A stretch of 63,493 bases of DNA, filler included, from Reclinomonas americana ATCC 50394 (lineage: Eukaryota): assembly GCA_048213135.1 (NCBI GenBank). It is 17 parts of 17 records of this genome, joined end to end, with 100 filler letters (N's around TTAATTAATTAA, not from the genome) between each part and the next. Parts side by side here need not be neighbours in the genome. Positions count along the whole stretch, not along the records: positions 21,109 to 29,369 come from AFZH01018185.1; 16 more parts are not named here. One strand, written 5' to 3'. The notes below the pieces were generated by a model. It did no database searches. It saw only the letters and a program-made list of their open reading frames with translations, and was not told the origin of the DNA. The position numbers and the translations under genes are program-made. Shown piece by piece: positions 21,995 to 27,664 of the stretch. How positions within the stretch are numbered: position 1 is the stretch's first letter; every line of letters starts with the position of its first letter.

Positions 21995-24900
21995 TCAGAG
22001 CGACCACACTCGCAAAGTCCAGTCGTCACTTCCACTCACAATGTGTTGACCGTCAGCAGTGACAGCAACAGATTGCACCGTGTCGGCATGCTCTCCAAAC
22101 CGTCGCATTTCCGCACCAGTCGCCAGTGACCACACACGCACAGTTCTGTCCCAACTCCCACTCACTATGTGGTGGCCGTCGGGAGTGACAACGACAGATC
22201 GTACTGAGCCAGTATGTCGGGCCAACAGTCGCATTATTCTGCCACTCACCAATGACCACACTCGAACTGTATTGTCTCTGCTCCCAGCCACAACGTGTTG
22301 ACCATCGGGAGTGATTGCAACTGATAGCGCATGATCAGCGCTCTCCTCCAACCGTCGCACCTCTTTTCCAGATGCTAGTGACCACACTCGAACTGTCGCG
22401 TCACAACCCCCACTCACAACGCACTGGCCATCGAGAGAAACAGCAACAGACAACACTGCACCAACGTGCCCCTTCATCCGTCTTACTTCTTCACCACTTG
22501 CAAGAGACCATACACGTACTGTCTTGTCACAACTCCCGCTGACCACGTGTAGTCCATCAGCGGCAACAGCAACTGAGTACACCGCGTCAATGTGCCCCTC
22601 GAAACGTCGCACTTCCTCGCCACTCGCCAGCGACCATACGCGCACTGACTTATCTCTGCTTCCACTCACAATCTGTTGCCCATCCGGGGTGACGGCGACA
22701 GAATAAACTGTTCCAATGTGTCCCTCCAATCGACGCAATTCTCTTCCAGTTGTGAATGACCACACTCGTATAGTCATATCGTCACTTCCGCTTACAATAT
22801 GCTGCCCGTTAGGTGTCACTGCAACTGATAACGACGCACGCATGTGACCCACAATAGGTTTCCTCCGTCGCTTCGGTTCTGTCATGTGCCCCTCCTGAAC
22901 ACGTAGGGAAAAGATATCATTCTCAGACACTTGAAAGGCTTCCGGAAGCGCAGATCCTAAAACTTGACGAACTAACCCTGTCGCTGGAACATCAGCCCAC
23001 AAAAGGCAAGAAGCGTCATTCTCAGACTCTTGTACGGCTTCCGGAATCACAGGTCCTAATACTCGACAAACCAACCCTGTCGCTGACTCCACTGCAACAA
23101 TTTGCCGGTACACCGTGATACCAAGCACAAGTGATTCGAGCTCACACAATGAATTGACTAATACTTCGTCACAGGGACTGACTGAAACTGTCTTTCCAGA
23201 CAGAAGTTCACATTGTACAGTAACACCATCCGCATCACAACTGATCGCATGAACGCCATCTCTCAAGACTGACACGGATGTCACTCTGGAAGCATGGCCC
23301 ACAAGCAGCCAGACTGCATTCCCACTGTCTGCAGACCAAGCGCGCACAGCATTGTCTAGCCCACCGCTGATGAAAAGTCGGCCATCTTTCGTTAACGCCA
23401 GACACGTTACGCCGCCAGTGTGCCCAGCGAAGCGATGTATTTCAGCACCCGTGTCACTTCGCCACACGCGAACAGTACAATCAGCACCACCTGTGACAAC
23501 ACTTCGACCATCAACGCTCACGGCTAGAGCATTGACGGCGCCCATATGGCCCTCCAGGGTGCGCAATACTTGGCCAGTCAAAAGTGAGAGCAAACGCACA
23601 ACACCGTCTGTGCAACTAGTGTATAGATGGCAACCGTCTGGTGTTACCGCCAATGCTGTTACCTCACCGTGATGACAACAATCCTTCCATAGTTGCAAAC
23701 CATCAATCGGTGACCACAGCTGCACTGTCCAATCACTACTGCAGCTCACACATCGAATCCCAACACTCATCTCAACAAATGCCACTCCATTAATGGTATC
23801 TGTGTGCCCACGATAAACTTGCAGCTCCTCGCCAGTGCTGATTGACCACACTCGAATCAGTGGACCAAGGCCACCAGTGACAGCGAGCGCACCGACTGGC
23901 GTCATGGCACATGCAACGCACCGCACCCCGGCGCCGTGACCACCGAGTCGACGCGCATGCTCGCGATTATCGGTTGACCACAGGCGAACAGTGTCATCTT
24001 GGCTGCAACTGCCAATGAGTCCGTTTGCTGCTGCTGATACAGCATGCACGACATCCAAATACCCATCAAATCGAAAGACCTCACAATAGCTGACAAGTGA
24101 AAACACTCGAACTGAGTGATCAGCCATCCCACAAGTTATGTGGTCACCGTCAGACAACAGTACAGCGACAGTCCTCAATTCTTGCTGCGAGTCAAATCTA
24201 AACAGTCTCAGCTGCTCGCCGTTGGACAGAGACCAGGTACGAACCGTGCCGTCATCGCTGCCACTGACTATCCACTGATCATTGGCTGTGATTGCCACAG
24301 ATCTAACCTGACTTTCATGGCCCCTTATGCACAAGCCTCTCTCACCCGTCAGCAGCGACCATACCCGCACAGTTTTGTCACGACTACCGCTTACCGCAAT
24401 TCTACTATCAGAAGTACATGCCACAGCAAGTACACCACCGCGATGGTCGCAAAAGCACCATTTCTCAACACCGTTGGAAACGTAGTACACACGCACGGTA
24501 TTATCGTCGATTCCGCACACAACATATCGACAGTCACGAGTCAACGAAATCGCTGCGACGGGAGACTTAACGTCCAGAGACTGCCAAACCAGTGGTGCTT
24601 CGTCATCAAGGCCCAATGGCCACACACATACCGACCCATCTGCGCCACCACCGACAACGAATTGGCCATCGAATGAAATTGTAATTGACTCGACAACTGA
24701 AGAAAATGGTTTGACACACCGTCTTTCTTCGCCATTAGGCGACCACACTCTAAGCGATCCATTTGTACAACCCCCGGCAATTCGATGCCCAAATGAGGAG
24801 ACTGCGACACAAGTAACCAATGTACTACTGTGCCCCACCATCGGCTTCCTTGGCCAGTTCACACCCGTCACATTCGCCCCTCTGAAATCCGCCTCCCTAG

Positions 24901-27664
24901 CATACGCCAAGCACACATTCACCTCCCGCAAATCCGCTCCCCTCCACACCGTCCTGTGCATCACCGCATCCCTCAAGTCCGCACCTCTCACTCGCACACC
25001 CGACAGATCTCGTCCACTGAACGACACTTGTGCCACACATAACACTGTCGCTGCATTCGCCGCTGCCGTCACCAATCGCTCCTCATCCACCTCCCGCGAC
25101 ATCTCAATCACCTCCCACAGTCTCGCTTGCAACACAGGAGACCGCCGCACCACCTCGGCCATCTGCTCCACCAACGATGGTCGATCATTCAGCAGTCGCA
25201 CTGCCAGCACATGCTGCTGCATATCTTCTATCGTCAGTTTCCTCTCCTCATCCCACGTCTCCCACGCAAACACATGCCGTGACACACAATGCTCCAGCAA
25301 CGACAGATGCACGAATCCCCACTGCGTTGTCCCATACCGTCGCACAATAGGACAGCATACTCGAACATGTTGGTTCTTGTGACCGAGGAACTTGTCAAAA
25401 GGTCCACCGTCCACCCGTCGCTCGGTGAGTGGTGCACCACCGAAGTCGTCCTCCTCCTCCCCACCATCACCTGATCGACTCTCCATCACAGTCACACGCA
25501 CCACATTCCTCTCGTGCATCAATCGCGCCAGTCCCTCGCAGAATGCCAGACACGTCTCCTCGCTCGGCACACGATCCGCACCAAGACGTGTCTGCCTCTC
25601 CTGCTCTCTCACAATCCACTGTCGAATGAACCGGTCAAACACATCACACCGAGTCGGCCGCTGCACACCACTCGCCAGCAACTGCGGCAACACACGGGCC
25701 ACCACCGAAAGCATGAATGGATTCGACACCAGTGCATCCAGTCCATGCACAAACTTGAGTGCACGAATGTACTCCTCCGCAGTAATCCACCGCACTTCAA
25801 AATCATCATCGTCACCAGCCACTTGCACCAGCCGCTTGAAGTACTCCTCAATCTGCTCCTTGTTGAACGGTGCAATGTGTCGCTCCATCAGCTGCTGCGT
25901 ACACAACTGTCCTCGTGCATCCACCGGTGCGAAGTACTGCCGGTACTGTGTCACACCACCCAGTGCCGTCAGCGCGTAATCGCCTCGACAGGTGATAATC
26001 ACCTTCACATCGCGACACACATCCAGCTGATTCTTGACAAACAGATTCACACCACGGTACAACTCATCGTACCCGTCAAGCAACAACAGCAGCGGCTCCT
26101 CTTTCAATCGTCGCACATCCGACTCCAATCCCAACTCGGGCGACAGTCGCTCCAGTGCCCCCTCCAACAACCACTCATCGGCATTGCGCAGTGCACCAAG
26201 AGGCACACGCACGGGCACCCGTCGACTCTCTCTCGTCTGCCACTGTCGCCATGCTCGCTCAGCCAGAACCGACATGGTGGTGGTCTTGCCAGCACCACTG
26301 TTGCCAAACAGCACCAGCACACGTTGCGTGGCGTTGGTATCGGAGAGGAACGCATCCACATCCGTCAACAAATCCGCCATCTTGTCCCTCGACGAAACAT
26401 CACGCTCACGCGAGCACCAGAGAGGAACGTACATCTGCATGTTCTTGCGCACAGTATCATCTTCGTAATAATAGGCCATCTCACGCAGAGCCAGTCGATG
26501 CAACCGTTCTTCGAAGGTGCTGATGATGAAATCGACGGAGCGCGCCTCACGAATCCGCATCACCAAGCCGCTGATAACATCAGCAGGCATGTGCAGCATC
26601 GCCAACAAAGATAGTAACACACCGCCGTCGCCGATGTGGTCTTGTAATTTCGCCTCAGTCCATCCCAAGGGCGAGTGCACCAACTCGTTACGCACCTCTC
26701 TAAGTTGCTCCAGTGCCTTCCGTTCATCACCATCGTCAATAAGAAGCAGCTTGCAACCGTCGTTTAGAACAAGTCCACCAAACAGCATGATAGATACCAA
26801 TGATGTCACATCGAACGCGTTACACGATGGGTTGGAAGTGGCGTCGGCATCTAAGGCGGCCTTCCAGTCGAGCAAATGCCGCTGCTGAGGTGTAAACAAC
26901 TTGACTCGTCCGGGAGCGAGTGGTGCATACCGATCGTACCAAGCTTTGATAGTCGTTGGATGCCAGAACAACGGCGGGGTCCACATGTCTGGAGTCCACG
27001 CCCGCACATCAAAGTCGGGATGATCGCGGCTGAACTGTCCCAGAGCGCGTTGACACCGTAGACGCATCGCGTCGACGACCACCTCGAAAACCATGTTGAT
27101 GCGATTGATGTTGGTCATCCTGTACAGTGCGACGTGAGACGGGAACAAAGTACACGAACGGACCCTGACTGGCCAACCAACCGCTCTGATGCCAAGGAAC
27201 TGGATGGACTGAGCAACCTTACAAAGTTGAGTTATCCGCACGAAACACGTATGTCAAAATTGACATCACCTTGCAACTCCGCTAACAGCAGCAGCAGCGG
27301 TAGCGAGCGACATGGCGATTCGCACAACCAGTGGAGTTGTGGCTTTCATTCCCATTCCACGCAGTGACACACCACTCATTTCGTGAATGTCAAACTCCAG
27401 TGGCTTCTCCACTCCCACAATCTCCATCTTCCCATCTCCACTCTTCTCCCGCAGCAAGCGAGTGGCCTCACGCAGCAAGTCCGCGAGAGTGGACATGCCC
27501 GACATGCCCTCCACCACTACTGACAGCGATGAATCATGCGCCGCACTCACATGCACGGAAAACTGTCACACACAAGGTAGCAAGTGACAAGCGATGAGAG
27601 CGAGAAGGTAAAGTAGCGTGTGAATTAGACGCGTCCCCACTTGATCAATACAACTCACCGACAT
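21995..27664 (-). CDS. NLR-like STAND protein, ~1807 aa: ubiquitin-like, HEPN-like, NACHT, pentapeptide repeats, 21 WD40; exons 27664-27659, 27562-27270 and 27119-21995
   Basis: Walker A GNSGAGKTT; Walker B LLLLLDGYDEL; VIITCR; NPFMLSVV; pentapeptide run ADLRDA/ADLRE/ADFRGANV; RNELVH (R-x4-H); both introns are GT-AG and keep the frame. Confidence 0.9.

Follow-up and report, generated by a model that had tools for sequence, protein, structure and literature searches.

Proteins that join an HEPN domain to a STAND NTPase have been described in animals and in bacteria. In the survey by Anantharaman et al. (PMC3710099), DZIP3-like HEPN domains are recorded as N-terminal partners of NACHT domains (Table 1 there); such fusions occur in animals and are expanded in Capsaspora. 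Fusions of the CXorf38 family to NACHT are recorded as well, and the survey also describes bacterial proteins in which an N-terminal HEPN domain is joined to a STAND NTPase. In the pearl oyster, more than 50 NACHT proteins with an N-terminal DZIP3-like HEPN domain are reported, some of them with WD40 or TPR tails (PMC9646362). For bacterial NACHT proteins, Kibby et al. (10.1101/2022.07.19.500537) name HEPN among the fused domains and beta-propellers and pentapeptide repeats as sensors, and their text mentions HET-E/D; this preprint was the only match when the full-text literature was searched for HEPN domains in fungal NACHT NLRs. Here, we analyze a single large gene of Reclinomonas americana ATCC 50394, which appears to combine a putative divergent HEPN domain with a NACHT ATPase, pentapeptide repeats, and three WD40 propellers. 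It lies in a stretch of 63,493 nt (the window), which consists of 17 joined parts that are not necessarily neighbors in the genome; the part with the receptor gene, positions 21,109-29,369, is AFZH01018185.1. An earlier note, made from the sequence alone, had read the gene as an NLR-like receptor that starts with a ubiquitin-like (UBL) and an HEPN domain. Its premise that DZIP3-like HEPN domains occur at the N-terminus of STAND proteins is supported, for NACHT domains, by PMC3710099 and PMC9646362.

[quoted passage not shown] Clusters of this type are also the nearest neighbors of the N-terminal core of the R. americana protein in the ESM-Atlas. However, the R. americana protein had no match to the DZIP3 profile PF18738 at E≤10, its NACHT domain is that of the pentapeptide-WD40 module and not of the animal NLR type, and it contains three propellers and no LRR. 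A second group, the NACHT-pentapeptide-WD40 proteins of Mortierellaceae, Cyanophora, metagenomes, and bacteria, shares the collinear NACHT-helical-pentapeptide-WD40 module and has variable N-terminal effectors, whereas no relative of the N-terminal domain studied here could be detected among these proteins and the third propeller is extra. Finally, the KEN domains of RNase L and Ire1 and the bacterial HEPN-STAND proteins are described as HEPN RNases with RNx3H-type sites. RNase L and Ire1 contain a different HEPN family, and their activating module is a kinase or ankyrin module in place of the NACHT domain.

An intact receptor-like gene with a NACHT-pentapeptide-WD40 core

An open reading frame (ORF) runs on the minus strand, which carries all features of the gene, from 27253 to 21995. 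It encodes 1707 residues from the Met at 27118 (21998-27118) and is uninterrupted. Residues are numbered from this Met; the spliced model discussed below would place 100 more residues in front of it. Codon usage was best in frame 0 in nine of ten segments of the main ORF, and residues 1-65 were ambiguous. The gene is intact and immune-receptor-like, and it encodes a large NLR-like (STAND) receptor, predicted to be cytoplasmic, with a NACHT ATPase, pentapeptide repeats, and three WD40 propellers.

Residues 266-689 (25052-26323) comprise the NACHT NTPase together with a helical part at its C-terminal end. The Pfam NACHT profile PF05729 matched with E 1.2e-7 and 32.2 bits, above the cut-off of 26.7. 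Both nucleotide-binding motifs that had been called intact are present: Walker A, FGNSGAGKT (26282-26308, residues 271-279, with K278), conforms to GxxxxGK[ST] with GNSGAGKT, and Walker B, LLLLLDGYDE (26057-26092, from residue 343), ends in the acidic residues of the DGxDE pattern. The adjoining pentapeptide-repeat stretch (24851-25051, residues 690-756) comprises about 10-11 units. Its earlier identification was borne out by PF00805 (E 3e-8, 33.5 bits, cut-off 20.2), by the NCBIfam model MfpA (9e-7), and by matches to 2bm4, 2j8k, and other pentapeptide proteins in the PDB.

The C-terminal part is dominated by WD40 repeats, for which PF00400 matched 17 stretches with E 1.9e-130; many propeller families matched as well. 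Blades were counted with a hidden Markov model (HMM) derived from the most C-terminal propeller, whose seven regular units each span 42 residues. The HMM found 20 blades, seven in propeller 1 (23975-24850, residues 757-1048), six in propeller 2 (23231-23962, residues 1053-1296), and seven regular 42-residue blades in propeller 3 (22001-22882, residues 1413-1706). The three propellers of the earlier note were thus recovered, but not its count of 21 repeats (7+7+7), as no unit was detected by the HMM at residues 1297-1340, the place of the supposedly degenerate 14th repeat. This place falls within a linker (22883-23230, residues 1297-1412) that has coding-like codon usage and no detected blade. 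The linker also contains a two-fold repeat (22883-23100, residues ~1340-1412) with a unit of ~29 residues (ATGLVCRVLGPVIPEAVQESEND... and ATGLVRQVLGSALPEAFQVSEND...), which has no match elsewhere within the window.

Relatives of the core were collected with residues 245-800 at a threshold of E≤1e-5. The 30 homologues came from Mortierella, Linnemannia, Entomortierella, Gryganskiella, Benniella, and metagenomes, and five were EukProt proteins named Cyanophora paradoxa. In all 25 homologues examined, the region from the NACHT domain to the pentapeptide repeats was collinear with the R. americana protein, at 24-34% identity within the module. With this collinear alignment, the pentapeptide stretch, and 20 WD40 units, the core is, by sequence comparison, a known module. 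The earlier note had placed the same architecture in Mortierellaceae and ciliates; the former is supported by five named matches, while no ciliate was among the 30. In a quick maximum-likelihood tree, the R. americana sequence formed a long branch (1.46) and grouped weakly (86) with the Cyanophora proteins.

The N-termini of the homologues, in contrast to the conserved module, differ from one another. Their precomputed Pfam accessions in the 30-match set denote what we take to be kinase, TIR, SAM, PARP, caspase, and phosphoesterase domains. Because the N-terminal domains vary among the relatives, this position can be regarded as a swappable effector slot. In the R. americana protein, it is filled by a domain of about 200-260 residues that is predicted to be all-helical. 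A local phmmer comparison of this N-terminus with 32 homologues yielded nothing significant (best E 0.4), and the domain has no paralogue within the window. In a separate search for related loci with P0029 as query, no relative was found.

A putative HEPN domain in front of the NACHT domain

HEPN domains are characterized in PMC3710099 as four-helix up-down bundles of about 100-120 residues or more. The catalytic motif is located at the end of helix 3, its R is usually followed by N, D, or H, and helix 2 contains a conserved acidic residue, often within Ex3[KR]. The earlier note had pointed to two sequences N-terminal to the NACHT domain, and both were found there. The first, FDVTSLVSIML (26783-26815), spans residues 102-112; D103 opens the predicted helix 2 and is a candidate for the conserved acidic residue, with no confident alignment at this position. 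The second, RNELVH (26675-26692, residues 143-148), is a candidate Rx4H catalytic motif with R143, N144, and H148, and LEQLREVRNELVH ends at residue 148. RNELVH agrees with the HEPN motif in having the form Rx4-6H and a polar residue after the R, and the protein contains no other RNx3H. When the N-terminal region was shuffled, at least one Rx4H occurred in 47-50% of the shuffles, at least one R[NDH]x3H in 7-8%, and at least one RNx3H in only 1-2%.

The putative HEPN-like domain covers residues 66-200 (26519-26923), as delimited by predicted helices, ESM-Atlas searches, and hhalign. An AlphaFold2 model of residues 1-260, made without an alignment and of low confidence (predicted local distance difference test, pLDDT, 41.5), contained helices at residues 77-95, 101-125, 132-147, and 155-174. 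In this model, RNELVH spans the end of the predicted third helix (132-147) and the beginning of the loop that follows. With the 260 N-terminal residues as query, clusters of HEPN_DZIP3 and HEPN_Swt1 were retrieved from the ESM-Atlas at a score of 0.78. With the core (residues 66-200), three HEPN_DZIP3 clusters were retrieved at 0.81 (175, 153, and 176 shared features) and a Swt1 cluster at 0.77, and nine of the ten best family-bearing matches of the core fell into one family or clan. The sole weak Pfam match of the N-terminus was DUF4559 (E 0.17-0.18) at residues 133-203, a segment that includes the motif. DUF4559 co-occurs with PF18738 in one ESM-Atlas cluster and is presumably the CXorf38 HEPN family; the literature matches to its name were unrelated papers.

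For a profile comparison, a set of aligned HEPN domains was required. PF18738 was not found in three, nor in 401, bacterial genomes, so that no alignment of the DZIP3 type was possible and the Swt1-like family was used instead. PF18731 matched in 14 of the 401 genomes, 13 times above the cut-off, and 13 of the domains were aligned. hhalign placed GDERKALEQLREVRNELVHSPL of the core on the RNRWAH block of the bacterial Swt1-like profile, with R, N, and H matched (P 0.013, probability 3.4%). With a looser setting, a collinear alignment over 102 columns was obtained at low confidence. The score of 19.3 was reached by none of 343 shuffles in which the motif was kept fixed, by one of 216 full shuffles, by none of 31 windows taken from elsewhere in the protein, and by none of 135 N-terminal windows of 14 homologues, and thus by one of 725 controls in total. 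Taken with the position of the domain in the effector slot, these similarities make it plausible, and in our estimate probable, that the front end of the receptor is a very divergent HEPN-type domain.

The 5'-end of the gene and the putative UBL exon

Upstream of the main ORF, a spliced 5'-end can be proposed. Exon 1 (27659-27664), as read from the sequence, would consist of only 6 nt, ATG TCG, followed by a GTGAGT donor. Intron 1 (27563-27658) would comprise 96 nt with the ends GTGAGT...ACAG, and each of its three frames contains stops, with codon usage of the non-coding type. Exon 2 (27270-27562), the "UBL" of the earlier note, has about 98 codons and is carried by an upstream ORF of 99 codons (27266-27565). 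Intron 2 (27120-27269) would comprise 150 nt with the ends GTGATG...TACAG; it is in frame and contains two in-frame TGA codons. Exon 3 (21995-27119) would hold the ORF that begins with Met 27118 and runs for 1707 codons to the stop codon at 21995-21997. Other possible starts are an ATG within exon 2 and the Met at 27118 itself.

A serious contender, to which we give slightly less than even weight, is the view that the "UBL" exon does not belong to this protein, with translation beginning at Met 27118 and the upstream sequence being a small gene of its own or an upstream ORF, or else that its fold is not ubiquitin-like. It is favored by the minute size of exon 1 and by the 150-nt gap, which has the same size as the gaps between the ORFs in the WD40 arrays of the window. 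It is also favored by the searches of exon 2, for which neither Pfam nor NCBIfam yielded any match, UBL included, at E≤10. On the other hand, both proposed introns have GT..AG ends, with GTGAGT and GTGATG as donors, and stops in every frame, and the frame of exon 2 joins that of exon 3. Furthermore, the codon usage of exon 2 is of the full coding type, with 0.246 bits/codon in frame and -0.28 and -0.29 off frame, compared with main-exon references of 0.209 +/- 0.092 when windows are read in frame and of -0.24 +/- 0.16 when they are read off frame. Exon 2 is thus coding-like, and its splicing to the receptor is predicted. An AlphaFold2 model of 97 residues of exon 2 (pLDDT 48.4) contained strands at 2-8, 12-18, 55-60, and 64-69 and a helix at 23-41; at this low confidence, the order of elements is strand, strand, helix, strand, strand, helix, which is compatible with a beta-grasp. 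For the label UBL, no family match was found, and the low-confidence beta-beta-alpha-beta-beta prediction is what favors it.

Alternative explanations for the N-terminal domain

The HEPN assignment of the earlier note is thus backed by the motif statistics, the ESM-Atlas neighbors, and a weak match to the Swt1-like profile; a family match and a sequence relative, in contrast, were not obtained, and several results weigh against it. No HEPN family was matched in Pfam (E≤10, four cuts, whole or trimmed), in PADLOC, or in NCBIfam, and the absence of a PF18738 match also applied to all four cuts. phmmer of the N-terminus against 1.84 billion representatives retrieved a single match, a tandem-repeat protein that was aligned to residues 203-241 seven times and was judged spurious. 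A word-indexed search of the N-terminus at E≤10 found none, and PDB sequences gave no match to it at E≤10. The hhalign probability of just 3.4% is accompanied by a confident part of only 22 columns around the motif, and one control window, from the Linnemannia protein P0012, scored 19.28, compared with 19.31 for the query. ESM-Atlas scores below 0.9 are leads only, since a third of shuffled proteins obtain a first match of at least 0.8. At its pLDDT, the AlphaFold model is unusable, so that the helix positions are soft. Lastly, the domain contains no Ex3[KR] upstream of RNELVH.

Alternatively, the N-terminus could be an orphan helical domain with no relation to HEPN, such as an adaptor or a helical bundle that disrupts membranes, as found in many fungal NLRs, and the presence of RNELVH could be coincidental. 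The protein would then be an NLR-like receptor with another output. The lack of a curated HEPN profile match and of any homologue, the short profile alignment with its close Linnemannia control, ESM-Atlas scores (0.78-0.81) within a range that shuffled proteins often reach, and a slot that accepts many unrelated domains in the homologues all speak for this explanation. Nevertheless, we regard it as rather unlikely. Coincidence would have to produce an RNx3H that arises in only a small fraction of shuffles, the nearest ESM-Atlas clusters are of the very family that had been predicted beforehand, with agreement among nine of ten matches, and the profile score was virtually never matched by the four sets of controls. 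Nor did Pfam yield a helical effector family of another kind, such as HeLo or death-fold, for the N-terminus.

Several Mortierellaceae homologues have a common N-terminal domain of ~190 residues (P0016 41-260, P0012 165-385, P0009 190-415, P0015 215-430, P0018 170-385). Its profile weakly matched the bacterial Swt1-like HEPN profile (P 0.0049, 65 columns) at the "tRLxGTHQQS" block. P0009 contains an Rx4H and P0012 an Rx6H, and R or H is missing in the other three, so the domain may be a decaying HEPN. The N-terminus of the R. americana protein was also compared with this shared domain, and a relationship between the two was rejected, as the match was not significant (P 0.18).

Because the Mortierellaceae domain is weakly HEPN-like with a decaying R..H pair, HEPN could be the old effector of the clade. 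This possibility is part of a wider reading, in which the N-terminal domain of the R. americana protein would be an orphan HEPN RNase of extreme divergence and the executioner of a protist NLR, HEPN an old effector of the eukaryotic NACHT-pentapeptide-WD40 clade, the third propeller a capture from a tandem WD40 array, and the upstream exon a ubiquitin-like cap. That all of these elements hold together is distinctly unlikely.

Least probable, and in our view very unlikely, is an HEPN fold that does not cut RNA and acts as an RNA binder or scaffold signaling via partners: inactive versions are recorded in several HEPN families in PMC3710099, Ex3[KR] does not precede the Rx4H in the domain, and both R and H are kept in only two of the five weakly HEPN-like Mortierellaceae domains, but R, the polar N, and H are intact here at the commonest, four-residue spacing, and 194 of 202 DZIP3-like HEPN proteins of the oyster keep Rx4-6H, which the authors of that study read as activity (PMC9646362).

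The third propeller and other features of the window

At the C-terminal end, a second peculiarity was found. The window contains tandem arrays of WD40 ORFs at 397-5894, 10704-17360, and 37478-50111, positions that all lie outside the part with the receptor. Propeller 3 shares 58-65% protein identity and ~70% DNA identity with these arrays. For propellers 1 and 2, protein identity to the arrays was only 36-40%, and no DNA-level match was found elsewhere within the window. On this evidence, propeller 3 is a member of the tandem WD40 ORF family of the arrays. Propellers 1 and 2 are part of the conserved NACHT-pentapeptide-WD40 module. The length of the C-terminal part can be set beside this result: 951 residues follow the pentapeptide module in the R. 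americana protein, compared with 108-875 in 24 of 25 homologues and 1141 in the remaining one. As propeller 3 resembles the arrays and propellers 1 and 2 do not, the comparison suggests that a local propeller was captured and added to an ancestral two-propeller receptor. "Local" is used here for arrays that were regarded as neighboring, though they lie in other joined parts of the window.

Fungal HET-E/NWD allorecognition NLRs also combine NACHT and WD40 and have a regular C-terminal repeat array, and the WD repeats of the Podospora HET type are near-identical. An array of that type was considered for propeller 3 and rejected, as its units are only 56% identical at the protein level (62% at the DNA level). 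The R. americana protein further differs from these NLRs in its pentapeptide segment and in its N-terminal domain.

Within the WD40 arrays, successive propeller ORFs of ~400 codons are separated by gaps of 65-240 nt (1560-1840, 3030-3190, 38600-38780, 47620-47750). A GTGAGG or GTGACC stands at the start of the gaps or close to it, a pyrimidine tract and CAG stand at their end, and ATGTC follows in several cases. In view of these gap ends, the arrays may represent giant genes with many exons or, alternatively, tandem genes in a very compact arrangement. Directly downstream of four propeller ORFs on the same strand, an ORF of 573 codons (9116-10837, minus strand) contains TPR_10 and TPR_12 repeats. 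At 33070-36861 on the minus strand, three ORF pieces match the XRN 5'-3' exoribonuclease domains XRN_N and XRN_M and represent a multi-exon XRN gene; it is located about 5 kb upstream of the receptor in window coordinates, in another joined part. Sixteen pairs of 44-base N runs with 12 bases between them, 1408 N in total, were found mostly between ORFs (for example 21009-21052 with 21065-21108, and 29370-29413 with 29426-29469); they are the filler at the joins.

Proposed mode of action and implications

If the N-terminal assignment is correct, a mechanism can be proposed by analogy. Residues 66-200 would form a very divergent HEPN domain with the DZIP3/Swt1-like group as its closest kin, in which R143, N144, and H148 would constitute an RNase site that needs no metal. 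Binding of a ligand to the propellers or to the pentapeptide segment would release NTP-dependent oligomerization of the NACHT domain, and the HEPN domains would meet. RNA would then be cleaved, as in RNase L, Ire1, and bacterial STAND nucleases, and the affected cell would stop growing or die. Activation by dimerization with death or dormancy as its outcome, as proposed in the earlier note, is likewise drawn by analogy. RNase L, Ire1, and HEPN-STAND proteins are switched on by dimerization or oligomerization. A cap resembling a beta-grasp may be contributed by the small exon upstream. The full statement, namely an active HEPN RNase effector that is switched on by NACHT oligomerization, is mildly favored in our assessment, and is held less firmly than the presence of the HEPN-type domain itself.

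HEPN-NACHT-repeat proteins of animals, HEPN-STAND proteins of bacteria, and the NACHT-pentapeptide-WD40 chassis were all known before, and the receptor appears to be a reshuffling of these known parts rather than a system of a new kind. New are the combination of domains, the orphan putative HEPN domain, the extra propeller of the array family, and possibly the small N-terminal exon. As the parts and the logic had already been described, the gain is incremental. If the N-terminus is an active HEPN RNase, the R. americana protein would extend the range of NLR-type receptors that act by cleaving RNA beyond animals and bacteria. Its single ORF would offer a compact test case for the activation of HEPN by NACHT, and the array-related third propeller hints at how such receptors gain sensor surfaces. 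The chassis is common to bacteria, early-diverging fungi, and a glaucophyte, and with such an RNase the receptor would lend weight to the idea of a free recombination of sensor, switch, and executioner domains across kingdoms.

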